Assembly: GCA_963806645.1 (NCBI GenBank)
Contig: CAWDYQ010000002.1
Coordinates: 11,141-75,140 of the forward strand
Source: Candidatus Bathyarchaeota archaeon
GTDB lineage: Archaea > Thermoproteota > Bathyarchaeia > Bathyarchaeales > Bathyarchaeaceae
Direction: 5' to 3'
Length of the DNA: 64,000 nucleotides
This document shows positions 3,909 to 17,801 of this stretch, one piece after another. Both the position numbers and the translations under genes were made by a program. Position 1 is the first letter of the stretch; each line of letters opens with the position of its first letter. Under the pieces are notes generated by a model, which saw only the letters and a program-made list of their open reading frames with translations, was not told the DNA's origin and did no database searches.

Positions 3909-6503
3909 TTATTTCTTTTTATTGAGCACTAAGAAACTGATGATACCGATCATAATGGCTACGACAACGAGTACAGTAAGGATAATGTCGATTGTAGAAT
4001 ATTCTGGTACTACTGTAGGTTCAGGGTATTCTGGAAGTTGGCTTATAACTGCTTGACTGATTTGTTCAGGAGTTGGATTGTCAGGAAGACTGTTCACTAC
4101 ATTCTGTGCAACATCTTGTGCTGAAGGACCTTGATATCCTGGATATGGTGGAATTGTCACTTGTGCTGGTGCAGGATCAACTACAAGATAAGTTGTTGAA
4201 GTTGAACCATAATATGCTTCTGACCCATCGAAAGTTGCAATTATTGTGTAAGTGCCTTGCATTTGTGGGATAAATGAATAACCAAAGTTGCCGTATGCGT
4301 CACTAGTTGCTGTGCCAATCCATGCATATGCGCCTGAAGGATCAACTACTTGGATTCTTACGTCAACACCAACTGCATCTGCTGGTCGATCTTTTTGCAT
4401 AAACTTGTATTCCATCCATGCACTCATGTATTCATCAGAAATTGCTGGAGTACCCTTAAACTCAGAACCTGGAGACTGATCAGTTACTGTTCCTGTTACC
4501 ATTACACTGGATCCTTTTGGAACTGCGGTCATTGGAGCTGAAACAGTTAATGCGCTTGGTCCTTTACCGATACAGTATACTGAACCATCATATGCGTTCA
4601 AATAAACTAAGTTTCCGTCTGCGATAGCGATAGGTGCAATTGATGTTCCTAATCCTGAAGCAGACCATCCAAGTAGATTCCAAAGTTCTTCTCCGGTAAA
4701 TGCGTCAACAGCATATACTCTGTATCCTTTGTATAGAGGTGTATTTGGTGAATGCTCACCAGAAAATGCATAAACGACTCCGTTAGAAACTGCAGACAAT
4801 TGGATTGGAGTAAGACCCCAAGGTACTTCTGCTCCTAGGTTTGTGTCACTGAATTTCCAAAGTAGACTACCGTTTGCCATTGAATAACAGAAAATTTCTC
4901 CTCCATAACCGGCAATGTATAGGTTTCCGTATGCTGGGAAGCCTTGTCTGTTGCTGTAGTATTGAAATGCCCGTTGTTCTCCAACTGGACCCCACAATAG
5001 GTCTCCGGTGTCAATACTATAACCGGTTCGTTGGCCTGTCTGGAAGTCTGTCATTGTCCATACACGGTTGACTGGGTCTAGTGGTTGCATTGCTAACATT
5101 CGGGTAATGTTGTTTGCTGGTGCTGGATAGTCTCGGATCCAAAGTAATTGGCCTCTTGTTTCTGGTTTGTCGCTTATGGCCCACATTGTCCATGGGTCAG
5201 GATTGTTATCTCTTGCTTGTGAAGTGAGTGTTATGCCACTGCTGCGTCCAAGTATTAAGTCTCCGGGGATTATACCAACTATGGCTGGGTTTGAGTTTCC
5301 AGGCAAATCAGGGATTGAGACGTTCCAGGAATATGCTTGACTTGCGTCAATTTCTTTTTCCATTGGTCTCCAGCTGATTTCGTTGAATCCAGTTCCTGCA
5401 ACTCCTGCTGCTGCGGTGTTATTCCAGAGAAGAAGTCTACGGTCTCCATAGTTAAGCACATAACGTACTATCTCACCTTTTTCGGTGTATACTTCTGTTC
5501 CTCCAGGAACACCAGTTAAGTTGAAAACGTTGAGTCCGGTGAATGCGTCAATACCTATCCATGTGCTTCCGGCAGTTGCCCATAGGGTACCTCCTACGAC
5601 TCCATGTTGGTTTGGTGACTCGAAATTATAGAGTTGTGCAAAACTTGGGGTGATGTCGTATCTTCGCCAGAGTTCTTCGCCTGTTCGCAAATCAACAGCA
5701 ACGAATCCTCCACCGCTTCCAGCATGGTTCAAAGGTTGTCGGTAATAGAGTATTCCGCTTACGATCATTGGATTACCAAATCGTGTCTCATAAGAATAGC
5801 CAGAGTAGAAAGTTGTGTGACTATCTCCTCCTACCATACCTCCGAACTCGATTGGTTTTGACCATAGTATGTGTGAGGTAGTCGGTGAATTGCCTCCGTC
5901 TTGCCAGCGATCATCAACATCTCCTCCGTTTAGCCAATTTGATGAGATGTCACCCCATAGGTGGTTTGCTCCATCTACTGGACGGGTCCAATATTCTGTT
6001 GGAAGTGCAGCTTCGGGTATTCCTGTTACTTGTTCTTCTTGGACAGTTAGTGTAGTTGTTGCGCTGCTAGGAAGATAATAGTCGTTTTGGTATGCTCCTC
6101 CAAAATCATATACTTGTCCTGGGAAATTGAACTCTAAAGTGTATGTTCCTACTTGATCAGGAACATATACTGTATATGCTGATGATGTTGTGTCTACAAC
6201 GATTGGCCAGTTGACTGTTACTGTGTTTCCGTCAGGTTTTGTTATAGTTAGTACGTAACCCTCAAATCGGATATCGTTAGTGATACTTGCTGAGTTAATT
6301 ACTCTTTCCAACCATACCACAATGAGGGCTGGTTGGTTAACTCCGGACGGGTTGGGTGAAACGTTGATGAATGCGTGTGTTGGAAGTTGCCATGCAGGAT
6401 CATGTGCAGTGACAGATGTTAAAGTAATTAATGCGGTAGATAGAGTTAACAATAGAATTAATGATATTACAGAAATTTTTGATTTTAATTGACTTTTTTT
6501 CAT
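3909..6503 (-). CDS. secreted PQQ-like beta-propeller repeat protein with C-terminal TM anchor (paralog 2)
   Basis: 864-aa ORF, the same length as 921..3515. It has a signal peptide and the same blade motifs (FVAVDLRTGEELW, IFCYSMANGSLLW, VYAVDAFTGEELW). The C-terminal block GYQGPSAQDVAQNVVNSLP.NPTP.QISQAVI is nearly identical to paralog 1. Confidence 0.75.
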   Translation of the reverse strand: MKKSQLKSKISVISLILLLTLSTALITLTSVTAHDPAWQLPTHAFINVSPNPSGVNQPALIVVWLERVINSASITNDIRFEGYVLTITKPDGNTVTVNWPIVVDTTSSAYTVYVPDQVGTYTLEFNFPGQVYDFGGAYQNDYYLPSSATTTLTVQEEQVTGIPEAALPTEYWTRPVDGANHLWGDISSNWLNGGDVDDRWQDGGNSPTTSHILWSKPIEFGGMVGGDSHTTFYSGYSYETRFGNPMIVSGILYYRQPLNHAGSGGGFVAVDLRTGEELWRRYDITPSFAQLYNFESPNQHGVVGGTLWATAGSTWIGIDAFTGLNVFNLTGVPGGTEVYTEKGEIVRYVLNYGDRRLLLWNNTAAAGVAGTGFNEISWRPMEKEIDASQAYSWNVSIPDLPGNSNPAIVGIIPGDLILGRSSGITLTSQARDNNPDPWTMWAISDKPETRGQLLWIRDYPAPANNITRMLAMQPLDPVNRVWTMTDFQTGQRTGYSIDTGDLLWGPVGEQRAFQYYSNRQGFPAYGNLYIAGYGGEIFCYSMANGSLLWKFSDTNLGAEVPWGLTPIQLSAVSNGVVYAFSGEHSPNTPLYKGYRVYAVDAFTGEELWNLLGWSASGLGTSIAPIAIADGNLVYLNAYDGSVYCIGKGPSALTVSAPMTAVPKGSSVMVTGTVTDQSPGSEFKGTPAISDEYMSAWMEYKFMQKDRPADAVGVDVRIQVVDPSGAYAWIGTATSDAYGNFGYSFIPQMQGTYTIIATFDGSEAYYGSTSTTYLVVDPAPAQVTIPPYPGYQGPSAQDVAQNVVNSLPDNPTPEQISQAVISQLPEYPEPTVVPEYSTIDIILTVLVVVAIMIGIISFLVLNKKK

Positions 6504-6816
6504 ATTTGTTCTTTCCTAATTGTATTACATTGATAAAAACAATTAAAGAGTATTTATACTTGTCCTATAAGACCGTTATAGGCGTAAAAACCGCCCTATT
6601 TTAACATGTTTACTTTCCAATAAAATCTCGAATATTAAGTTCTTAGGAACATTTTTTTAGAACATAAAACACATAAAATCGTTAACTCGCGCGTCTATGG
6701 ACTCCTTTATATGAGTCGAAATAATAGTATAGTTGAAGAGTTTTCTTTTATTACATGGGTTTGTCCTGCGGACTAACTGAAATCTTTTCTATTCAAGTAA
6801 AATGAGGTGAGTATAC

Positions 6817-6978
6817 ATGTCCCAAAAAAGAATGTTTGAAGTTAAATGCACTGAATGTCAGAAAAATACTACTGTACCATTTGAACCAACAAAAGGCAAA
6901 CCAGTTTACTGTAAAACGTGTTTTTCGAAACACAGGACTCAGAGAACAAGAAGACCTATTGAGCCCTATAACCTTTGA
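6817..6978 (+). CDS. small CxxC-x17-CxxC zinc-ribbon protein (53 aa)
   Basis: ATG at 6817 is preceded by AGGTGA 7 nt upstream. Translation is MSQKRMFEVKCTECQKNTTVPFEPTKGKPVYCKTCFSKHRTQRTRRPIEPYNL. It is below the ORF-track length cut-off. The listed ORF 6836..7060 is an overlapping off-frame shadow. Confidence 0.6.
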   Translation: MSQKRMFEVKCTECQKNTTVPFEPTKGKPVYCKTCFSKHRTQRTRRPIEPYNL

Positions 6979-7194
6979 TATGAAAAACGCATGGGCAACA
7001 CGCGGAGAAAAACTAAGAAAAACCCCCAAAGAGCCTAAAAGTATTTTTAAAACCAATTAATGCCATAATTAGATCAGATTGTTTGGGGTTAATTTTTTGC
7101 CTCCCCAAAATCCCAATTCGTAAATACAGTATTCTTAATCTCAATATACCAATGCTGAGCTTATGACAACTCAATTCTTTTTAGTAAACAAAAA

Positions 7195-7852
7195 GTGAAA
7201 CCGAAAGCAAACAGTAAGTCATGTGAAAAATTTTTTAGGAAAATTAATTATGAAACTTTAAATTCACTTCTAATAGTATGTATGTTAGTGGTTTTTATGA
7301 CAACAAACCAAAAAAACCTAATTTTGCGCTATGAACTGTTTGGAATGCTTTTTGTTTCCATTCTTGGAGGACTACTACATTTTACTTTCGAATTGTCTGG
7401 CTTCAATCCAATTGTCGGTACATTTTCAGCAGTAAACGAAAGCGTTTGGGAACACCTAAAGTTGGGTTTCTGGCCCATCTTACTAATAACAATAATCGAA
7501 TACAGGTTTATACTAAAACAAACTAACAATTTCTTTCTAGGAAAGATGGTTAGTGCTTTTACGATAATCCTTGTTATTCCTGCAATCTTTTATTCGTATA
7601 CTAGCATTACAGGAGAAAGTATTTTCTTGATAGATATTCTCAGCTTTTTCATAGCAGTTATAATTGGTCAGGTCCTAAGTTACAAGATACTAACATACAA
7701 GCAACTACCAGAATATTCAAAATGGATTTCTTTATTCATCATTAGCAATTTTGGCGATAATATTTATTGTTTTCACGTTCTATCCACCTAATCTGCCGCC
7801 ATTTCAAGATCCAATATCCGGCGGATATGGAATCATAAACCAACCACATTAA
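7195..7852 (+). pseudogene. multi-pass membrane protein (DUF6512-like) with apparent +1 frameshift near 7735-7745
   Basis: The ORF 7195..7791 contains the motif FSAVNESVWEHLKLGFWP. The +1 frame continues from about 7742 with a TM-like LAILAIIFIVFTFYPPNLPPFQDPISGGYGIINQPH to a stop at 7850-7852. Confidence 0.45.
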
Positions 7853-7962
7853 CCATTCAATCTCTAGTTTTAGAAATCCTCAATACAAAAAATTCAAACA
7901 AAAAACATATCGCAAAAGTGGTCCGCAAATGATAAATAAACAAAAAACAGATAATATGTTTT

Positions 7963-8787
7963 ATGAATTCTAAAGAAAGACAAGAAATTATAGCTAAATC
8001 GCCGATTTCTTTTTCATATCTTAAACGGTTCAATGCAGCAGCAGGTGTTTTGCATCTAATCCAAGGACTACTAATGCTAGGATTGGGAACTCAACTAGAG
8101 TGGGAACGCAGCATTTACACATTCTACACAAAATTTACAATAATCCAAGGTCCACCATTTCAACTAGAAGTAACTCCAGATCCCCAGGTACTGTTCACCA
8201 TAGGATACTTGGGAATAATTGTAGCATCTTTTCCACTACTTTCTTCTGCAGCTCACTTTATTATTGCATTCATAAAGAATAATAAATATAACGAAAACCT
8301 GAAAAAAGGAATGAACCCCTACAGATGGTACGAGTACGCATTCTCTAGCTCAATAATGATAGCGTTGATAGCCCTCTTTTTGGGCGTATGGGATTTCTGG
8401 TCGTTAGCAATGATCTTTGTACTAAACGCAATGATGATAATGTTCGGATATTTGATGGAACTGATAAACCAAAAAACCGAAAAAACAAGCTGGTCAGCCT
8501 TTATCCTCGGAACAATTTCTGGATTCACACCGTGGGTCGTGCTATACGCATACTTCATTGGATCGTTATTATCAATAAACGCAGATGTACCAACCTTCGT
8601 TTACATGATTCTATTCATATACTTCATAGTCTTCAACATTTTTGCAATTAACATGATACTTCAATACAAAGGCGTTGGCCGCTGGAAAGACTATCTTTAC
8701 GGAGAAAGAATCTACATAATTCTTAGTTTCATCGCAAAAACAATCCTATCATGGCTAGTATTCATTGGAATATTTGCACCATTCTAA
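7963..8787 (+). CDS. heliorhodopsin
   Basis: 274 aa with seven hydrophobic segments. Blocks recalled from heliorhodopsin 48C12 match: FNAAAGVLHLIQ, NPYRWYEYAFSSSIMIALIA (counterion-position Glu124), VLNAMMIMFGYLMELINQ, and LQYKGVGRWKDYLYGERIYIILSFIAKTILSW (Schiff-base-position Lys259, codon 8737-8739). Confidence 0.85.
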   Translation: MNSKERQEIIAKSPISFSYLKRFNAAAGVLHLIQGLLMLGLGTQLEWERSIYTFYTKFTIIQGPPFQLEVTPDPQVLFTIGYLGIIVASFPLLSSAAHFIIAFIKNNKYNENLKKGMNPYRWYEYAFSSSIMIALIALFLGVWDFWSLAMIFVLNAMMIMFGYLMELINQKTEKTSWSAFILGTISGFTPWVVLYAYFIGSLLSINADVPTFVYMILFIYFIVFNIFAINMILQYKGVGRWKDYLYGERIYIILSFIAKTILSWLVFIGIFAPF

Positions 8788-8959
8788 AAACAAAAGCTTC
8801 AGGAAACTGAAGCCAACCAACTTTTTTTAAAAAAACATTTCAGAAGAAAAAATAAAAAACTAAAATTTTAGTAAATAAAAGTCGAAGTTGGATTGCACTT
8901 TCAAAAAATAATAAAAGGTTAGCATTTAATTTAATGATTATTAGTAAAATTATTTTAAA

Positions 8960-9451
8960 TTAGGGAGATTTTAATCCGATTTCCTGTTTTATATCCTCAA
9001 GTTTTACGGCAACTAGAGAAGCGTTCGTTGGAATAAGCGAAGACCATTCATCCGACTTTTTAAAACCATGCGCAGGAAGGAAGTTAGTTGAAAGTTTCTG
9101 TTCTCCATCTTCTGCAAGTTTCCGTATCGCTTTGGCTCTTTCCTGTGGATCGGTTACGACTTTTAAAGTACCTCTTAGGACAACAAAACGGTATTCACTT
9201 AGGTCTTCTCTGTATTCTTCGATTTCGACGCAGACACGTTTGTCATTCTCGATAAGTTTCATCTTTGTGCCGTAATCAGTAAAGTGAAAATATAGAGTTC
9301 CATCCAAAACAGCATATTGAAAAGGAGCAAGGTAAGGATAGTCTTTTCCTTTAAAGGCTATACGGCATAACCTCTGTCTTCGAATTAGTTTCCAAATTTC
9401 TTGCTTAGTCATCTTCGGTAATTTGAAAATAGGCAAAAGTTCCACCCACAT
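8960..9451 (-). CDS. pyridoxamine 5'-phosphate oxidase-like FMN-binding protein
   Basis: ORF with a split-barrel-like pattern (RLCRIAFKGKDYPYLAPFQYAVLDGTLYFHF...VCVEIEEY...YRFVVLRGTLKVV). The true start may be the internal ATG at 9412. Confidence 0.6.
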   Translation of the reverse strand: MWVELLPIFKLPKMTKQEIWKLIRRQRLCRIAFKGKDYPYLAPFQYAVLDGTLYFHFTDYGTKMKLIENDKRVCVEIEEYREDLSEYRFVVLRGTLKVVTDPQERAKAIRKLAEDGEQKLSTNFLPAHGFKKSDEWSSLIPTNASLVAVKLEDIKQEIGLKSP

Positions 9452-9625
9452 TAGACTGTTTAATCAATAATATTAGTTTTGAATACTTGAATTTTATGAC
9501 AGCCAAAGAACTGGTTACAAGCAATTTATGTTTTGCAATCAAGTATGTTAATCACCAAAAATAGCTTATAATCTCCAAACAATAGCATATGCGATAGTTT
9601 TTTTAGCTAAATATACTATTTTTAT

Positions 9626-10145
9626 GTGGTGTTTTTGTTGGATGTTTTTGATGTAATAAAGAAAAGAAGAAGTATACGAAAATACAAACAAAAGGTTGTA
9701 GAAAAAGAAAAACTACTAAAAGTTTTGGAAGCTGCTCGTCTTGCACCTTCTGCAATGAATCGACAACCATACGCAATTGTGGTATTATCAGACTCTGAGA
9801 CATATAGAAAAAATCAGTTCTGCCTGCAATCAAAAATGGGACGCCCCAACAATTATTGTTATTTGTGCTTTTCCAAAAAAAGCCTGGGCTAGGGATGATG
9901 GAGAAGAATATTGGAAAGTTGACGCAGCGGTTGCAATGACTAACTTATCTTTGCAGGCTTGTGCAGAAGATTTAGGAACATGTTGGATAGCTGCCTTTAA
10001 AGAAGAGGAAATTAAAGAAATTTTAGGAATAGAACAGGATGCTAGAGTTGTGGCAATGACTCCTTTAGGATATCCCGATGAGAAAAAAGGTTTGGTGACA
10101 AAAAGAAAAAGTATTGACGAATTAGTGCACTATGAAAAATGGTAA
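9626..10145 (+). pseudogene. nitroreductase family protein interrupted by a +1 frameshift near 9800-9812
   Basis: ORF 9626..9892 gives VIKKRRSIRKY...LEAARLAPSAMNRQPY. ORF 9777..10145 gives EKISSACNQKWDAPTIIVICA...DLGTCWIAAF...VVAMTPLGYP. The two join if one nucleotide is removed around ACATATAGAAAAAATC. Confidence 0.75.
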
Positions 10146-10165
10146 TACTCCTGGAGGTAACGCAC

Positions 10166-10627
10166 ATGGAAAAGAAAAATGCTCCACCCTTTTGTTTGTT
10201 AGATCAAAATGATGAAAAAGTTTGTTTGGAAGATTTTAGAGAAAAATGGGTTGTTCTCTATTTTTACCCAAAAGATAATAGCAAATCTTGTACTCTTGAA
10301 GCCTTGAGTTTTACTGATAACATAAAAATTTTCAAGGATTTAGGTGCTGTGGTTATTGGTGTAAGTCCAGATTCGGTAAAAAGCCATAAAAATTTTGCTC
10401 ACAAACACAATTTAGACTTAATACTTCTAAGTGACCCCGAACACAAAGTTTTAAATCAATACAATGTTTGGAAAATGAAAAAAATGTATGGTAAAGAGTA
10501 CATGGGTGTAGAAAGAAGCACCTTTCTGATAAACACTAAAGGGCAAATTGAAAAAGAATGGGTTAAGGTCCGCGTTAAAGGTCATGTTGAAGAAGTAAAA
10601 AAGAAATTATTAGAACTAAAAAAATGA
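10166..10627 (+). CDS. bcp: thiol peroxidase / peroxiredoxin, Bcp type
   Basis: ATG at 10166 is preceded by GGAGGT. The protein has the motif WVVLYFYPKDNSKSCTLEA and a thioredoxin-fold pattern. Confidence 0.8.
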   Translation: MEKKNAPPFCLLDQNDEKVCLEDFREKWVVLYFYPKDNSKSCTLEALSFTDNIKIFKDLGAVVIGVSPDSVKSHKNFAHKHNLDLILLSDPEHKVLNQYNVWKMKKMYGKEYMGVERSTFLINTKGQIEKEWVKVRVKGHVEEVKKKLLELKK

Positions 10628-10637
10628 AACTGAAAAA

Positions 10638-12005
10638 TTAGGAAAGGTTTGCAACCATTTTCACATAACTGTCAATATCGAATTTTCGCCTTAATCCTTT
10701 TGCATTCATGTATCGGATTTTCCCAAAAATTGCTCTTTCGTTCCAAGGTCGATCATGCTTTCCAAAACACCATGCAACCCCAGCAAAACCATTTGGATCT
10801 CTTCCATCCAACTCGTACTTGTTGTTAAGATAAAGCGCTATCTTGTAAGCCTTCACTGGGGACTTTGTCCATTCAATAATTTTTTTCCCCCAATACATTC
10901 TCATATAACCATGCATTTTACCCACAATAACCATTTCTTTTTGTGCGGCATTCCAAAACGGATCATGGGTTTCAGCAGCCTCCAATTCTTTTATGCCGTA
11001 AACATATTCTCTATCGTCCATTCTATGCTCGTTCAACGTCTTCTTTTGCCATTCATTAAGGCCTTCAAAAGAATCATAATGTTTATTGTAGAAAACAAAG
11101 TTTATGGCTAGTTCTCGTCTAATTATTAGTTCTTCAAGATACGATTCTGAACCTGGACTGTTTGATTCGATTATTTTCTGTGCAACATATATTGGTGATA
11201 TTTGTCCAAAGTGTAGGTATGGACTAATGTTTGAAACACATTGTTTTGTTGGGTCATTCTTATCTTCAAGATAGTTATCCAAATTTTTTTCAATAAAATT
11301 CTGGAGATGCTTTTTCGCTTCAGAAATACCCCCAACAAAATACTTAGCCGTTTTAACACCTATGTCAATTTCAAGTTGGGAAACTGCTCTTTTCACATTT
11401 CTAATATCGAATGAAGAAAAACTTAATCGCAACGAGTCTTTTTTCAAAACGTTATGTTCTAAGGGAACAAGAAAGGCGTCTATAACTTTTCTTATTTTTG
11501 GCCTAAACGTTGCTGCAGAATATTCTTCTTTAGGTGAAGCCACCATCACAGGAACAATTATGTTACTCTCAACCTGAATAAGAGGACATTTTATGTTTTC
11601 CTTAACATAGCTGGTCCACTTTTTCTCGATTTTCGTATATCCCTGATCTACAACAACCATCGAAGCAGATTTAGCTAATTCAACAGCTCCAAGTTCCGGT
11701 GAAATTCTCCTAATAACAATCTTTATTCCTTTTTCTTCAAGTGAGCTTTGAACTTCATTGAGTCCTTCTAACATAAAATAATAGTGCCGTTTATTTGCTT
11801 CAGGATAAGAATTTGTAATTCCAAAATAAACAAGAAGAGGAATATTCAACTTGTTTGCCTTCAAGATCGAATATTCTAAGGCATGATTATATTCTGTTCT
11901 TTGAGTTGCCTGCATCCAATAAAGCACAAAGTCGCCATCTCTAATTTTTTCTGCATTTAGCATTTTTATTCTACTTGGGTTTATCAAATCAGACAACTTT
12001 TCCAT
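10638..12005 (-). CDS. phr: deoxyribodipyrimidine photolyase, class II
   Basis: 455 aa. The C-terminal block GRDPNGFAGVAWCFGKHDRPWNERAIFGKIRYMNAKGLRRKFD is typical of class II CPD photolyases. Confidence 0.85.
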   Translation of the reverse strand: MEKLSDLINPSRIKMLNAEKIRDGDFVLYWMQATQRTEYNHALEYSILKANKLNIPLLVYFGITNSYPEANKRHYYFMLEGLNEVQSSLEEKGIKIVIRRISPELGAVELAKSASMVVVDQGYTKIEKKWTSYVKENIKCPLIQVESNIIVPVMVASPKEEYSAATFRPKIRKVIDAFLVPLEHNVLKKDSLRLSFSSFDIRNVKRAVSQLEIDIGVKTAKYFVGGISEAKKHLQNFIEKNLDNYLEDKNDPTKQCVSNISPYLHFGQISPIYVAQKIIESNSPGSESYLEELIIRRELAINFVFYNKHYDSFEGLNEWQKKTLNEHRMDDREYVYGIKELEAAETHDPFWNAAQKEMVIVGKMHGYMRMYWGKKIIEWTKSPVKAYKIALYLNNKYELDGRDPNGFAGVAWCFGKHDRPWNERAIFGKIRYMNAKGLRRKFDIDSYVKMVANLS

Positions 12006-12143
12006 GATAGATGTTGGTTTTGTAGGTGTATAACCTGCTATTATTTTAAATTTAAAGTATCAATGATTGACATATAATATAAAAAAGGATAAAAAGAGTG
12101 AACAAAAAATCCACTCCAAAAATTATGGTTTTTAAAATCAACG

Positions 12144-12242
12144 TTATGCTGGTTTGAGTTTTGCTCCACACACTGAGCATTTACCTTCGGCAGTAATCAT
12201 GGGTTGTTTAGCTACTTCTTTTCCACAAAGTCCACATTTCAT
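12144..12242 (-). CDS. 32-aa zinc-ribbon peptide
   Basis: ATG at 12242 is preceded by GGAGGTGA 8 nt upstream. Translation is MKCGLCGKEVAKQPMITAEGKCSVCGAKLKPA, with two CxxC pairs. Confidence 0.5.
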   Translation of the reverse strand: MKCGLCGKEVAKQPMITAEGKCSVCGAKLKPA

Positions 12243-12309
12243 TTTAAATTCACCTCCCCCAAACATTCCATCCAGTAATTCTTAATTGGATATATAATTT
12301 GAAACTTAC

Positions 12310-12344
12310 GTTTACACTGTCTTACAAGTGATTACAATGTAAAC
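12310..12344. promoter_or_regulatory. three helically phased TTACA repeats plus an inverted half-site
   Basis: Sequence is gTTTACActgtCTTACAagtgATTACAatgtaaac. TTACA occurs at 12312, 12322 and 12332, an exact 10-bp period. GTTTACA (12310-16) and TGTAAAC (12338-44) form an inverted repeat. The site lies in the divergent intergenic region. Confidence 0.35.
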
Positions 12345-12431
12345 ATCGACTTCATATCTAGCAGGCTTATTCAGAAAATTTCACTGATTACTTTTTTATA
12401 TCAAAACAGATTAAGTTGTGTTGATTTTGTC

Positions 12432-13420
12432 ATGAGAGAATTTGTTACACCCACAGTTGTTCTTAGCAAATGCATTGAAGTTGAACCATGTCGATATAAC
12501 GGCGGGATTGTTGTTAATGATGCGGTTAAACAACTAATTCCACATTTCCATATAATACCTGTTTGTCCTGAAGTCGAAATAGGTTTAGGAACACCCAGAG
12601 AAGTCTTACGTCATAGTTAAGAAAGAAGAAAAAATGAGACTAATTCAACCTAAAACCGGGTTAGATTTCACTGAAAAGATGAAGGCATTTGTAAGTTCAT
12701 TTTTGGAATCGTTACCAGAAGTGGATGGGTTTCATACTAAAAGGTAGATCACCGACAAGTGCAATTAAAGACGCGAAAATATATTCTGGTCCAAATCCAG
12801 GTGATGCCCTAAGGGGTAAAGGTCCAGGATTTTTCGGAATGGCTATTTTAGAAAAATTTTCTCATTTAGCACTGGAAGAAGAAGGCAGACTTAAGAATCC
12901 AAACATAAAGAGCAATTTTTTAACAAAACTCTACACCTTAGCCAAATTCAGAGAAGTAAAAAAGTCAAAATCAAGTAAAGAAATTCTAAAGTTCCATTCA
13001 GAAAATAAGCTTTTGCTTAAGGCATATAATGAAAAAGAAATGAGAATACTAGGAAAAATAGTGGCAAAAAGAGACCAATACAACCCAACCAGCCTGATTA
13101 AAGAATACGAAACACATTTTTTCCAAGCCTTAAAAACTGCTCCCAGATGCGGTTCTCAAATTAACGTTTTAATGAATAGCATGGGCTATTTTTCGAAGAA
13201 ACTGTCTGGAGAAGAAAAAGAATTTTTCTTAAAATCATTAGAGGATTATAAAGCAGGAGTTATCCCTTTAAGTGTGCTCAAAGCAATTTTCCAATCATGG
13301 CTTTTAAGGTTCAAAGATGAATATTTGTAAAGTCAATCATTTTTTGAGCCCTATCCAAAAGAACTGGTTGATATTGATTTAACTACGAGTTACTGTGATG
13401 GGAAAGATTACTGGAAATAA
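12432..13420 (+). pseudogene. DUF523-DUF1722 (YbgA-like) fusion gene, decayed: two +1 frameshifts and one in-frame TAA
   Basis: Segment 1 (frame 3) reads ...VCPEVEIGLGTPRE. Segment 2 (frame 1) reads KKEEKMRLIQPKTGLDFTEKMKAFVSSFLESLPEVDGF. Segment 3 (frame 2) reads ILKGRSPTSAIKDAKIY...DEYL, then TAA at 13328-30. The same frame continues SQSFFEPYPKELVDIDL to a stop at 13418-20. Confidence 0.75.
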
Positions 13421-13440
13421 TTACAGTTAATTTTCTTGTT

Positions 13441-13957
13441 TTATATAAAATCTATTTCTGTTGCTACTTCGTTTCTACGCATAAACCATGGTGTGAAAGG
13501 TCCACTGTAACGCATTGAAAAAACATTTCCGATTGCTTTTATGTTGGAGGTTTGAAGTTCGTCTAATAGTTGCTTTGATTTTTTTGTGAAATTTGAAGTT
13601 GTCCAACGACCAGAAAATCCTAATGCTGCCACGTATCTTTCTGGAATTTCCAGAATTTTAATACGCTCATCATTAGGTGTTGGGGCATTTTCTAGTGTAT
13701 ATTCCTCTGGCAAAACAAATGCTATCGAATCGTTTTCTGATAACACAGGTGCTGTCATTTCAATGTTTTGTGAAATTACTGGAGAAGTCATTTCTAAATT
13801 GGTTTTTGTGGTGTTATTACCTGAAATATAGTTGAAATAGAGAATTAAAGCCTCCATCACCATAACCATCAACTCGAGCTATAACCAATTTATTGTAGAG
13901 TCTGATTTCCACTTTATCCAATTTTTTTATTGGACGATACTTTGCTTCTTTTACCAT
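13441..13957 (-). pseudogene. SOUL heme-binding family protein with a +1 frameshift near 13830
   Basis: The upstream frame from ATG 13957 gives MVKEAKYRPIKKLDKVEIRLYNKLVIARVDGYGDGGFNSLFQ. The ORF 13441..13872 continues YISGNNTTKTNLEMTSPV...IEMTAPV. Removing one C in TTTCAACTA joins them. Confidence 0.65.
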
Positions 13958-14053
13958 AAAGTAATGTTAATGAACCAAAGCTATAATTCAATTTTGGTTA
14001 CCAAAAAATCTCCTATAAAATACCAGAATCTTTCTCAAAGAAATAAACAAAAT

Positions 14054-15262
14054 CTAATTGAGTAACTTGCATTCCCTGAAAACTCTACAACCAACTAAAG
14101 AAGCTATTGCTAACAATACTGCACTAATAAAAAAGGGAACAGACGAACCGGCAAAAGCGTATACAAAACCAATTATTAACGGACCTGGAATATTTCCAAC
14201 GCTTGTAACAGAACCGGCTATTCCTAATATGCTACCTTGTTGGTCAATAGAAATTCTTTTTGACAAAAAAGCTGGAATAGACGTGTTAATTATTCCAAAA
14301 CCTGCTGCAAGTAAAGCATTTGTTAAATAGAAAAGTATTACGTTTTGAAAAATTGGCATTGCAAAAATTCCCAGGGCCATCATCATTGGACCTAGGATGA
14401 TTAGCTTTTGTTCTCCTAATCTTTTGGAAAGTCGATTTATCAAGAAACCTTGCATTAAAATTTGAATTAACCCAATATAAACGAAAACTAAAGATAATTC
14501 AAAAGGACCAAAATTGAAGTATTCTATACTCAATAATGGCACAATAACAGGTATTGTACTAAACGCCAAAGTAACTATAAAAAGAATTAGAAGCGTGGAT
14601 CCAAAGAGAGGCTTTTTTATAGCAGCACGTAACCCGCTCAAATATCCTAAATTTGGACTTGTGCTTTCTATAGTTTTTTCTTTTGTTCTTTGAGGTTCTG
14701 GAAGGAAAGAAATTACAAATAATATATTTAACAAAGTAAGACCCATAGCTGCGTATCCGGCCATAGCAAAACCATACATGTCCCCCAGGACCCCACCCAT
14801 AGCTGGACCGATAATAAAACCTGCACCCAAAGCTGCACCAATTTTTCCCATCTCTTTTAGTCTTGATTGATTGTCTGTTATATCTGCAATGTAAGCTTGT
14901 GCTACAGCTCTTTCTGTGGCAATACCTGCTATTACTCGAGATAATAACAGCATTAAATATGAATTAGCAAAAGAAAATATTGTGAAACCAATTAAAGAGA
15001 TTAGAAGAGAAATAAGCAATATTGGTTTTCTTCCTTTCCTATCTGATGCTTTTCCTAATAGTGGTGAAAAGAAAAATTGCATAATAGAAAAAGAAGCAAT
15101 CAAAATTCCAAGTGCAATAGGACTTGCCTGAAATTCTTTTGTAAATTCTGGAAGAATAGGAATAATAATACCGTAGCCAGTTATGTCTATAAAAACTGTT
15201 AACACTATTACAAATATTGGAGAAAGCCCTTTACGTTTTTTATTAATCTGCATATTTAACAT
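14054..15262 (-). CDS. MFS transporter
   Basis: 402 aa with about 12 hydrophobic helices. The loop motif GKASDRKGRKPILL between TM2 and TM3 is typical of MFS_1. Confidence 0.8.
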   Translation of the reverse strand: MLNMQINKKRKGLSPIFVIVLTVFIDITGYGIIIPILPEFTKEFQASPIALGILIASFSIMQFFFSPLLGKASDRKGRKPILLISLLISLIGFTIFSFANSYLMLLLSRVIAGIATERAVAQAYIADITDNQSRLKEMGKIGAALGAGFIIGPAMGGVLGDMYGFAMAGYAAMGLTLLNILFVISFLPEPQRTKEKTIESTSPNLGYLSGLRAAIKKPLFGSTLLILFIVTLAFSTIPVIVPLLSIEYFNFGPFELSLVFVYIGLIQILMQGFLINRLSKRLGEQKLIILGPMMMALGIFAMPIFQNVILFYLTNALLAAGFGIINTSIPAFLSKRISIDQQGSILGIAGSVTSVGNIPGPLIIGFVYAFAGSSVPFFISAVLLAIASLVGCRVFRECKLLN

Positions 15263-15409
15263 TCAACTAACATTTAGATGAAATTAGCTATGTCTTAACT
15301 ATCTCAGGTAAATAAAATTACTGCAAAAAATGAGGCATACGAAAATAATAGACCAGTACCATAGCTTTTCTTGGTTACGAATAATTGCTGAACAAGATAG
15401 TAGATATAA

Positions 15410-16177
15410 TTATTTTCGTATTTTTTGTATGATGATGGTCCCAATTAAAACGACTAATACGATTATTGCACTTACTTGAGTCAAAGTGACAATGTTTTGG
15501 TATGCAGTTTGGGCTGCAGAAATACCGACAAAAGCCCAAATAATTACTAAACTATATGCAACATCTTTTCTTGTTGTTACTACTATCAAAGAAAGCAAAA
15601 GAGCAACAATAATGATTAATGAGGCCCAAGTTTCTGAATTTATTCCAAAACCATCCCAGTTGAGTGAAACCAAAGTAGTAGCAACGTTTGCGATTGAGGC
15701 AATAGTAATCCAACCTAAATATGTACTGAAAGGAAGATGAATTGCTATTCTTTCACGTAAGTCAACTTTTGATTTTCCGATATCGAGGCGCAGATAAATT
15801 GCAATTAACGATGCCAGCAACATGAACATAACAGGAACTGAAAAAATAAGATATTCAAATTGCCAAAGAAATAGCCAAACAATATTAAGTATACTACTAA
15901 GTACAAAAAGCCAGCCAATTCTATTTTGATAATCTTTATCTTTCTGGCTAGGTAACGCTTGAAAAACTACAAAAAGTCCCAACAAAATATAGATAACTCC
16001 CCATATAGAGAACACGTAACCGGCAGGAGTGATAAGGGTGAAATTTGCATCAGAAATCTCAGCCGTAACTTTTCCTCCGATCAGAGTAGAGCTCCCTGCC
16101 AATGAATTAACCAGAATTGTTAAAATAAACGCAATGATGTTTGAAAACTTTAGTAGTGTAGAATTTTTTGTCAACAT
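15410..16177 (-). CDS. TspO/MBR-related tryptophan-rich membrane protein (tentative)
   Basis: 255 aa and multi-pass. It is Trp-rich, with segments ITPAGYVFSIWGVIYILLG, NIVWLFLWQFEY and STYLGWITIASIANV. Confidence 0.45.
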   Translation of the reverse strand: MLTKNSTLLKFSNIIAFILTILVNSLAGSSTLIGGKVTAEISDANFTLITPAGYVFSIWGVIYILLGLFVVFQALPSQKDKDYQNRIGWLFVLSSILNIVWLFLWQFEYLIFSVPVMFMLLASLIAIYLRLDIGKSKVDLRERIAIHLPFSTYLGWITIASIANVATTLVSLNWDGFGINSETWASLIIIVALLLSLIVVTTRKDVAYSLVIIWAFVGISAAQTAYQNIVTLTQVSAIIVLVVLIGTIIIQKIRK

Positions 16178-16456
16178 GAAGATCCCAAGTATTTTTCAGT
16201 TGTTTTAATATATAAAACATCCTAGGATTATATTTGGCACAAATATTTTTCTTTTCCAATTAACCCCCAACAAAAAATGATAAAATAAGAAAAGAACAGA
16301 TCAAAGAAAGTCGTTGAGATTAAGAATAAGATTTCATTAGTTAAACATTTTTCTACAAACATTATTACCAGTTACAAAGATGCAATTTTCTTGAGATAAA
16401 AAATATGAGTAAAGTATAAAGATGTGTACACCTAGTCAAAGTGACGAGGGTAAACG

Positions 16457-16741
16457 TTGCCTGCAATGGAAATAGGAAGAATATGCATTAAAATCTTAGG
16501 ACGAGAAGCAGGAAAAAAATGTGTAATAGTAGATCTTGTTGACAAAAACTTCGTTCTAATCACTGGTCCTAAAGCAACCACTAGCATAAAAAGGAGACGC
16601 GCTAACATAAATCACTTACAAATTACTCAAGAAAAAATTGATATAAACCGAGGAGCAACCGACGAGGAAGTCACCGAAGCACTAAAAGCTGCGGGTAAAC
16701 TCGAAGAAATGAACGAGATAGCCAAACCTGCCCTTTCCTAA
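16457..16741 (+). CDS. rpl14e: 50S ribosomal protein L14e
   Basis: MPAMEIGRICIKILGREAGKKCVIVDLVDKNFVLITGPK...KRRRANINHL closely follows the archaeal L14e KOW pattern. The start codon is TTG. Confidence 0.9.
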   Translation: MPAMEIGRICIKILGREAGKKCVIVDLVDKNFVLITGPKATTSIKRRRANINHLQITQEKIDINRGATDEEVTEALKAAGKLEEMNEIAKPALS

Positions 16742-16778: not shown

Positions 16779-17801
16779 ATGAGAAGAATCAATGAACCAT
16801 GGAAAATAAATCGAAGCATGGTAGTCAAAGCTGAGGAAGAAACCAACATGCGTTTTGGCTGCAAACCAGACGAACGTCCAATTAAAGATCACATACGATT
16901 TGGAATAATAAACGTGGACAAACCTGCTGGACCATCAAGCCATGAGGTTACAGCATGGGTTAAACGAATCCTCAGTTTCGAAAAAGCTGGTCATGGCGGG
17001 ACCCTTGAGGCCTAATCTGGCCGGGGAAATCCCAAAGTTACCGGCGTTCTACCCAATGCAATAGAGGATGCTACAAAAATAATTCAGGCTCTTCTGCTAG
17101 CAGGTAAAGAATACGTTTGTGTAATGAAACTACATTCTCAAGTTTCAGAAGATCGCGTAAAAGAAGTTTTAGATGAATTTCAGGGACCATTATACCAACG
17201 GCCCCCAGTTCGTTCTTCGGTTAAACGAAGACTTAGAACAAGAACAATCTACTATAATGATTACTATGAGATGGATGGAAAAAATGTCCTCTTCAAAGTT
17301 GGATGCGAAGCTGGAACATACATCAGAAAACTGTGCTACGACATCGGTGAGGCCCTAGGTTGCGGAGCCCACATGCAAGAGCTAAGAAGAACAAGAGTTG
17401 GACCATTTATTGAAGACGAAAGTTTAGTCACTCTACATGATATTACTTATTTGTATAGTCAATGGCAGGAAACTAAAGATGAAAACCTGCTAAGAAAATT
17501 CATTTATCCCATGGAAAAAGCCTTAGAACTGATGCCAAAAATCCATATACGAGACTCAGCGGTAGACGCCCTATGTCACGGAGCACACTTAACAGCACCA
17601 GGAGTAGTTTCACTAGATTCAGGAATAAAAATCGGCGACCAAGTAGCGGTCCTGACCCAGAAAGGAGAAGCGATAACATTATCAAAAGCCTTTGTTTCCA
17701 GCGAAAAGATACTTAACATGGATCATGGATTCGTAGCAAGAACTGAACGGGTTATGATGCCCCGCGGTATCTACCCTAAGATGTGGCACAGCAATGCTTG
17801 A
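16779..17801 (+). CDS. cbf5: tRNA/rRNA pseudouridine synthase Cbf5 (TruB + PUA domains), coding sequence interrupted by a 21-nt BHB intron
   Basis: ORFs 16779..17015 and 17124..17801 are in the same frame. Joining 16779..17007 to 17029..17801 gives 334 codons with KAGHGGTLDPKVTGVLP, AGKEYVCVMKLH, QRPPVRSSVKRRLRTR, GTYIRKLCYDIG and a PUA C-terminus. Confidence 0.9.
17008..17028 (+). other. bulge-helix-bulge intron in cbf5 pre-mRNA (predicted)
   Basis: Hand fold of 16998-17033. Outer helix GGGA/TCCC; central helix CCCT/GGGG; 3-nt bulges TGA and AAA; inner helix GGCC/GGCC with loop TAATCT. Cutting after the second nucleotide of each bulge restores the codon GAT (Asp). Confidence 0.7.

Follow-up and report, generated by a model that had tools for sequence, protein, structure and literature searches.

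Heliorhodopsin in Bathyarchaeia recurs in a putative accessory photoprotection gene neighbourhood with photolyase as an occasional associate

We analysed a 64,000-nucleotide stretch of a Candidatus Bathyarchaeum genome (contig 2, positions 11141-75140, of an assembly of 7 contigs and 1.69 Mb), from now on referred to as the window. It contains an eleven-gene island at 7195-16177 that includes a heliorhodopsin (HeR) and a class II cyclobutane pyrimidine dimer (CPD) photolyase. Across Bathyarchaeia, HeR recurs beside the same small set of genes and is seldom close to a photolyase. With moderate confidence, and on the combined comparative evidence, we favour the reading of an accessory photoprotection gene neighbourhood, in which HeR would tune a neighbour-encoded partner and the photolyase would be an indirect associate. 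A preliminary description of the window had proposed a photoprotection module with HeR as its light sensor. The theme itself, light and photo-oxidative stress, is supported as coherent and recurrent, whereas an organisation built around HeR as sensor is not supported, given the HeR-free clusters of genomes G022, G008, G026 and G025 described below.

HeR loci of species-level genomes were surveyed using the best 80 of 348 candidate loci (81 loci with the window added), and at least one of the island families was found at 50 of the 80. The most frequent neighbours encode SOUL-type proteins (23 loci), PNPOx-like flavoproteins (19), a zinc-ribbon peptide (16) and RudS-like proteins (14), followed by Bcp-type peroxidases, TspO-like proteins and DUF6512 membrane proteins (9 each), major facilitator superfamily (MFS) transporters (5) and nitroreductases (4). 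By chance, a single-copy family would be expected at about 0.5 of the 80 loci, against the 14-23 observed for the top four, which lie at median distances of 160-280 nt from HeR. Together with Bcp, TspO-like and DUF6512 genes, these four lie repeatedly about 2 kb or less from HeR in other Bathyarchaeia. The neighbours are variously convergent, divergent or co-directional with HeR and their order is shuffled, which points to repeated re-association and not to a single inherited arrangement. When all open reading frames (ORFs) lying 4 kb or less from HeR were clustered, independently of the candidate list, these families emerged again, joined by UvdE (7 loci), Stay-Green/Mg-dechelatase (6) and fasciclin (5), and by a P-type ATPase, a Trm5/Tyw2 methyltransferase and an ABC ATPase. 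The zinc-ribbon peptide is 68-94% identical across genera, with a median gap to HeR of 161 nt, and in several loci its gene lies immediately upstream of HeR on the same strand. Within the genus, the PNPOx-like gene is the commonest neighbour; of 16 sampled genomes that have both, at least 12 place it about 1 kb or less from HeR.

Phyletic distribution follows the same pattern. Among 61 relatives, 24 HeR-positive and 37 HeR-negative, presence was compared by one-sided Fisher tests in which kinship is ignored. PNPOx occurs in 16/24 HeR-positive and 6/37 HeR-negative genomes (p = 8e-5), RudS-like genes in 9/24 and 1/37 (p = 6e-4), and SOUL in 8/24 and 0/37 (p = 2e-4), lying near HeR in seven of these eight genomes.

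Recurrent linkage of HeR and photolyase, for which the preliminary description had proposed a synteny check, was largely not borne out: the two genes lie within 10 kb of each other in 2 of the 15 searched genomes that have both. Three of the 81 HeR loci place them less than 10 kb apart, namely the window, L062 (7.3 kb) and L087 of genome G263 (0.6 kb). In the window, HeR on the forward strand and photolyase on the reverse strand belong to separate transcription units, 1.85 kb apart and with three genes between them; in G263, HeR, PNPOx and photolyase (Phr) share one strand with short gaps. A photolyase orthologue is present in 7 of 18 HeR-positive congeners, and none of these seven pairs is on a shared contig or, in the one-contig genome, close. 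In the complete congener reference, Candidatus Bathyarchaeum tardum M17C-01 (G005), 410 kb separate the two. The class-wide sample adds six more genomes with both genes, adjacent only in G263; in G269 they are 270 kb apart on one contig. Two adjacencies among 80 loci are marginally above chance (Poisson p 0.02-0.1). Photolyase presence is associated with HeR (9/24 HeR-positive versus 1/37 HeR-negative genomes, p = 6e-4; within the genus p = 0.07), again with kinship ignored. HeR and photolyase do not recur as a pair in Bathyarchaeia, and we infer that the photolyase is an occasional, indirect associate.

We hypothesize that the neighbourhood combines three parts. The first, with precedent in bacteria, would be a UV module of a photolyase beside a RudS/YbgA-type gene; the second, peroxide and redox detoxification by a nitroreductase-Bcp operon; and the third, a bathyarchaeal HeR set of SOUL, PNPOx/Nim-like, TspO-like and DUF6512 proteins and a 32-aa zinc ribbon, all predicted handlers of light-reactive cofactors. 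These genes may be co-selected because all would act when cells of the surface sediment meet light and oxygen. The damage expected under such conditions comprises cyclobutane dimers, photosensitised tetrapyrroles and flavins, and peroxides, and the predicted functions of the kit are CPD repair, peroxide removal, tetrapyrrole and flavin handling, and removal of photoreactive 4-thiouridine (s4U). HeR may be a slow-cycling sensor, binding and tuning a partner encoded by a neighbouring gene, by analogy with the tested pairs of HeR and photolyase, HeR and glutamine synthetase, and HeR and ABC transporter; in Bathyarchaeia, SOUL, the PNPOx-like protein and the zinc-ribbon microprotein would be the best candidates. 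Modulation of a neighbour-encoded client by HeR has experimental precedent in bacteria (PMC9769723, PMC11109279). A more specific version, which we regard as a long shot, is that HeR works via these small cytosolic neighbours (the 32-aa zinc ribbon, SOUL and the Nim/PNPOx-like protein) in light-gated sequestration or detoxification of photosensitising tetrapyrroles and flavins. The zinc ribbon would then correspond, as a separate protein, to the domain joined to HeR in Thermoplasmatales. Since Stay-Green genes are among the neighbours, chlorophyll breakdown products from detritus could be among the targets. If this version were true, the long-sought transducers or clients of archaeal HeRs would be identified.

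The preliminary description had also read frameshifts in the DUF6512-like, nitroreductase, YbgA-like (here RudS-like) and SOUL genes as a sign that the island may be decaying. The frameshifts are present: comparison with intact orthologues by tblastn placed one in DUF6512 (near 7735-7741), one in the nitroreductase (near 9797-9803), one in SOUL (near 13832-13842) and two in the RudS-like gene (near 12600 and 12735), which also carries a TAA nonsense codon at 13328-13330. Decay has independent support in the RudS-like gene and is unproven for the three genes with single frameshifts. When ORFs from twenty 20-kb samples of Ca. B. tardum were matched to the window's genome, 17 of 187 sampled orthologues (9%) were split across frames, corresponding to about one frameshift per 10 kb of coding sequence; carA (C1:449822-449837), feoB (C7:58700-60624), nucS (C5:26962-27826) and NFACT are among the split genes. 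Because about 9% of sampled genes are split genome-wide, single frameshifts are not evidence for decay in this assembly, and pseudogenisation should not be read from them. Most of the frameshifts are probably consensus errors in an assembly of doubtful consensus quality. A plain homopolymer-error explanation is unsupported, as frameshift sites are not enriched in long homopolymers in the island or genome-wide, the nitroreductase being a possible exception.

That the four broken genes are all true pseudogenes, left after the organism departed from a lit habitat, is rather unlikely. Five frameshifts plus a nonsense codon are packed into some 8 kb of coding sequence, a density about 6-fold above the genome mean (naive Poisson p = 0.0014, which is too optimistic because breaks cluster), and the scarcity of long homopolymers at the sites would also fit true decay. 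Against this stand the split orthologues elsewhere in the genome, the regional clustering of breaks (3-4 in 4 of the 20 sampled blocks) and the intact state of the HeR, photolyase, Bcp, PNPOx, MFS and TspO-like genes. The RudS-like gene is the exception: its three lesions include a substitution, and its orthologues were damaged independently in G008 (a frameshift and a small deletion) and G022 (a 57-codon in-frame deletion), which argues for real decay. The window copy is probably truly dead; RudS-like genes are intact in G004, G010 and G028.

The island occupies a variable low-GC slot with a surface-protein gene on one side and L14e-cbf5 on the other. Its GC content is 33.8% compared with 38.0% for the genome, which ranks it in the lowest 4.6% among 9-kb windows. 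The left flank consists of a PQQ/Ig surface-protein gene and a treble-clef zinc-finger ORF, and the right flank of L14e, cbf5 and an archaeal phosphoenolpyruvate carboxylase gene. In G022 the same flanks enclose a shorter insert without HeR, and in G019 about 370 nt separate L14e from the PQQ-type surface-protein gene, which is essentially an empty version of the slot. Conserved flanks, a variable insert and deviant base composition mark the region as a genomic island. Neither an integrase nor a flanking repeat was seen at the island (repeat scan of 6500-16600), and two inverted matches at its borders are not colinear.

Several observations weigh against the favoured reading of a photoprotection neighbourhood with HeR as tuner. 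Clusters that lack HeR exist as well: G022 and G008 hold DUF6512-Bcp-Phr-RudS-MFS(-TspO), and among HeR-negative genomes PNPOx adjoins UvdE in G026 and a Stay-Green-RudS pair is found in G025. HeR is therefore a frequent member whose role as a hub is unproven, and it may be a passenger in the cluster. The HeR-centred locus set is a biased sample, within-genus Fisher tests are weak (p 0.03-0.15), and the pairing of PNPOx and HeR inside the genus may be largely inherited synteny. The island genes are spread over both strands in about six transcription units. No operator shared by these units was found in the repeat scan of 6500-16600, which returned chance-level matches only and is uninformative in this respect. 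Between the zinc-ribbon and RudS-like genes, at 12309-12343, lies an array of three TTACA boxes with 10-bp phasing within a 7-bp inverted repeat (GTTTACACTGTCTTACAAGTGATTACAATGTAAAC), which occurs once in the window. It was rejected as a shared operator: allowing one mismatch, the pattern was counted 7 times versus 8.1 in shuffled sequence, and relatives lack the array in the equivalent region. Finally, the family of the retinal-forming dioxygenase (PF15461) had no match in 25 genomes, a negative of little weight because the control genomes were equally silent.

These points bear most directly on the main rival explanation, in which the island is a flexible niche-adaptation island independent of HeR, its accessory genes for a lit, micro-oxic sediment surface having been shuffled together. 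The patchy distribution of HeR (18 of 24 congeners, with 60 relatives searched, and 35 of 301 genomes in the class-wide sample), the mosaic gene order, the low GC content and the HeR-free sub-clusters would all fit it, as would the retention of PNPOx at 82-85% identity in the HeR-negative congeners G006 and G011. G022 carries its HeR on another contig, together with SOUL and zinc-ribbon genes; G004 has the order MFS-SOUL-RudS-Znrib-Bcp-NitroR-HeR and no photolyase; and these sub-clusters are combined most completely in the island of the window. We nevertheless judge independence from HeR to be distinctly unlikely, since it sits poorly with the confinement of SOUL to HeR-positive genomes and its proximity to HeR there, with the placement of the zinc-ribbon gene directly upstream of HeR in several loci, with the very short intergenic gaps and with the zinc-ribbon domains fused to HeR in Thermoplasmatales (PMC8612252).

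Very doubtful is a direct functional pair of HeR and class II photolyase, as in Trichococcus, with the island organised around the pair and photorepair boosted: the published interaction of TfHeR with TfPHR, a photolyase of the same class, speaks for it, as do the 1.85-kb distance in the window, the co-directional genes of G263, the near confinement of photolyase to HeR-positive genomes and the slight excess of adjacencies, but the two genes are rarely close in genomes that have both, lie hundreds of kilobases apart in Ca. B. tardum and G269 and on opposite strands in separate units in the window, and the nearest relatives, G022 and G008, keep the photolyase in the island slot without HeR.

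The HeR gene (7963-8787, forward strand) is intact and encodes a full-length protein of 274 aa that scores 300 bits against PF18761 (cut-off 26.7) and 344.8 bits against NF038020 (cut-off 100); among solved structures the best match is heliorhodopsin chain 6IS6 (E 3e-56). In this alignment the conserved Lys and Glu of 6IS6 correspond to Lys259 and Glu124, both of which are invariant in 20 orthologues; we take them to be the Schiff-base lysine in transmembrane helix 7 and the counterion in transmembrane helix 3, respectively. Residues 1-19 (window 7963-8020) contain the tail MNxxERQEIIAKSPISF, near-invariant in 20 bathyarchaeal HeRs that are elsewhere 70-93% identical. In the published topology of the family the N-terminus of HeRs is cytoplasmic, and this tail, being both conserved and cytoplasmic, is a candidate docking site for a partner. 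The single-cell genome SAG AM-311-L02 (G019) has three HeR copies (L054, L055 and L063), each beside a different subset of island genes. Transcription of HeR has been reported in Bathy-6 and Bathy-8 (PMC7110647).

Among the additional HeR neighbours, UvdE (PF03851, E 7e-64) adjoins HeR in L119 (10927-11901), L101, L080, L129, L085, L074 and L082. Stay-Green genes (PF12638, Mg-dechelatase family) adjoin it in L055 (9343-9975), L054 (868-1329), L076 (7734-8216), L081, L087 and L096; they are also found beside RudS-like genes in G025 and G008, and the window's genome has none. Small fasciclin (FAS1) proteins are encoded next to HeR in L103 (9463-9906), L081, L091, L104 and L124, and the fasciclin homologue of the window's genome lies elsewhere (C3:120533-120937).

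All eleven island genes listed in the preliminary description were found in place by Pfam, NCBIfam and PDB sequence searches, the TspO-like label being borderline. Nine of them have no paralogue in the 1.69-Mb genome, so the cluster is not a product of chance. The DUF6512 membrane protein gene (7297-7852, forward; PF20122, E 7e-26) likely starts at ATG 7297, the listed ORF beginning with GTG at 7195. Its intact G022 and G008 orthologues span model positions 1-181 of 181, and no other family, DUF2238 included, rose above noise in a permissive Pfam scan (E <= 10). Convergent with HeR lies the gene for the PNPOx/Nim-like split-barrel flavoprotein (8960-9451, reverse; Pyridox_ox_2, E 7.6e-25), which also has a weak NimABCDEF match. 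The nitroreductase gene (9626-10145, forward) matches PF00881 on two fragments, an intact orthologue doing so at E 2.6e-31. Its end overlaps the start of bcp, so that the two likely form an operon, and the pair is found again in L036 and L051. The bcp gene (10139-10627, forward) is intact and encodes a Bcp/PrxQ-type thiol peroxidase (AhpC-TSA, 122 bits; NF006960, 133.7 bits with a cut-off of 140; PrxQ NF053650, E 1.4e-40).

Convergent with bcp is the intact class II CPD photolyase gene (10638-12005, reverse; 455 aa). The protein matches positions 3-451 of 453 of TIGR00591 at 542 bits, slightly below the cut-off of 550, and in the PDB it comes closest to 8OET and 2XRY (E ~1e-110), followed by 3UMV, all of them class II photolyases. 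The zinc-ribbon gene (12144-12266, reverse) lies 138 nt upstream of the photolyase on the same strand. It is a 40-aa ORF with the pattern CxxC-x15-CxxC, and its conserved core of about 32 aa begins at Met9 (12242) and reads MKCGLCGKEV..QP.IT.EGKCSVCGAKL; searches of PDB and NCBIfam returned only a generic zinc-ribbon likeness to RNA polymerase subunit P. The predicted SOUL/HEBP-type haem- or tetrapyrrole-binding protein is encoded at 13441-13957 (reverse; PF04832, E 8e-31). The window copy covers positions 48-172 of PF04832, with the N-terminal part in another frame, and an intact orthologue spans 2-172 of 173 (E 5e-40), a full-length domain. The adjacent gene (14054-15262, reverse) is intact and encodes an MFS efflux transporter of the DHA1 type (Tet(A)-like; MFS_1, 195 bits), with matches to tet_MFS families far under their cut-offs.

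The RudS-like gene (12432-13420, forward) combines TudS/DUF523 and DUF1722 domains, the published architecture of RudS (PMC11417400). Pfam matches fall on fragments of the presumed pseudogene, in the same domain order as in the L036 orthologue, which covers PF04463 (1-141 of 141) and PF08349 (1-117 of 117) completely. Photolyase adjoins the RudS-like gene in the window, G008, G022 and L062. Eleven bathyarchaeal orthologues (L056, L061, L074, L076, L082, L094, L108, L111, L116, L122 and L129) were compared with TudS 6Z92. The first two [4Fe-4S] cluster cysteines align with it, in an alignment that is itself weak (19 bits), and the third, in the SPSC motif of TudS/RudS, is replaced by serine (SP[ST]S) in 11/11 orthologues and in the window copy (12725-12760). 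Because of this replacement, intact bathyarchaeal RudS-like proteins may be non-canonical desulfidases. The window copy and L056 and L061, which are nearest to the window's genome, have an extra cysteine six residues past the first ligand.

A divergent TspO/MBR-like membrane protein of 255 aa is encoded at 15410-16177 (reverse). Its assignment, based on sequence, is borderline. The window copy has no TspO match in Pfam (E <= 10), NCBIfam or a PDB profile search. In a Foldseek search of the PDB with its AlphaFold2 model (pLDDT 80), the best match reached only E 0.76, and none of the 44 listed entries is described as TspO. Of five homologues that are 73-93% identical, three pass the PF03073 threshold of 24 bits (27-31 bits, including P0002, which is 93% identical and scores 26.9 bits) and two have no match; close homologues are named 'tryptophan-rich sensory protein' at NCBI. 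The model consists of several long, mainly hydrophobic helices, with the TspO-like part at residues ~20-167 followed by a C-terminal extension. Like TspO/MBR proteins, it is a membrane protein rich in tryptophan, and close homologues score above the Pfam threshold for TspO_MBR in that part; unlike them, it is ~100 residues longer, with extra C-terminal helices, and the window copy fails all sequence and fold tests applied here.

Beyond the island, the flanking cbf5 gene carries a 21-nt in-frame insert at 17009-17029 (GGCCTAATCTGGCCGGGGAAA) within the catalytic GTLD|PKVTG motif. The insert contains a GGCC...GGCC helix and is shared by the G019 orthologue with wobble-compatible changes (GGTT...AGCC), and it looks like a splicing-endonuclease mini-intron. 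Given this in-frame interruption, cbf5 was ruled out as a fifth frameshifted gene.

Parts of this picture are already published, namely the coupling of HeR and photolyase, the linkage of HeR to oxidative stress, the linkage of RudS to photolyase and the presence of HeR in Bathyarchaeota. The study of a HeR that stimulates a photolyase, mentioned in the preliminary description, exists: TfHeR of Trichococcus flocculiformis binds and stimulates the class II photolyase TfPHR (Shim et al. 2022, PMC9769723). As in the window, a HeR, a class II CPD photolyase and an uncharacterised membrane protein are encoded in a short neighbourhood. In Trichococcus, however, they form one operon common to the three species in that paper, whereas in the window HeR and photolyase are on opposite strands with intervening genes and the pairing is rare among relatives; the membrane protein is DUF2238 in Trichococcus and DUF6512 in the window. 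In a further survey (Bulzu et al. 2021, PMC8612252), HeR is linked to peroxiredoxin and catalase, and photolyase and UvdE genes flank fusions of zinc-finger domains to HeR (Znf-HeR). Those neighbourhoods resemble the bathyarchaeal ones in combining HeR with peroxiredoxin-type genes, UV-repair genes (photolyase, UvdE) and a zinc-ribbon element. The likeness of the latter is one of zinc-ribbon class: in Thermoplasmatales the ribbon is an N-terminal fusion, in Bathyarchaeia a free-standing 32-aa microprotein. SOUL, PNPOx-like and RudS-like proteins are not among the HeR neighbours in the part of PMC8612252 at hand.

Ten groups of HeR neighbours, one of them 'Photolyase', were distinguished by Cho et al. 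2024 (PMC11109279), who likewise treat a neighbour-encoded protein as a candidate client; SOUL, Pyridox_ox_2, RudS, the zinc-ribbon peptide, TspO-like proteins, DUF6512 and Bcp are in none of the ten. RudS (TudS-DUF1722) is a tRNA 4-thiouridine desulfidase whose genes occur in light-responsive operons with photolyase, and in E. coli ybgA adjoins phr (Jamontas et al. 2024, PMC11417400). Bathyarchaeal RudS-like proteins have an identical two-domain architecture and in part the same adjacency to photolyase, but differ from RudS in the serine at the third cluster-binding position, and the window copy is a probable pseudogene. As far as the available parts of the published HeR neighbour surveys extend, SOUL, Pyridox_ox_2, RudS and the zinc-ribbon peptide are not listed in them, and the bathyarchaeal set of HeR partners appears to be unreported.

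HeRs are widespread and few partners have been tested, namely glutamine synthetase, photolyase and an ABC exporter. In Bathyarchaeia, a dominant group among sediment archaea, the often cited link to photolyase is the exception. The present analysis names testable candidates in its place: SOUL, the PNPOx/Nim-like flavoprotein, the highly conserved zinc-ribbon microprotein and the Cys-to-Ser RudS-like protein. A further suggestion is that sediment archaea, nominally anaerobic, may hold an accessory kit against light and oxygen, which would bear on the habitat that these organisms actually occupy.

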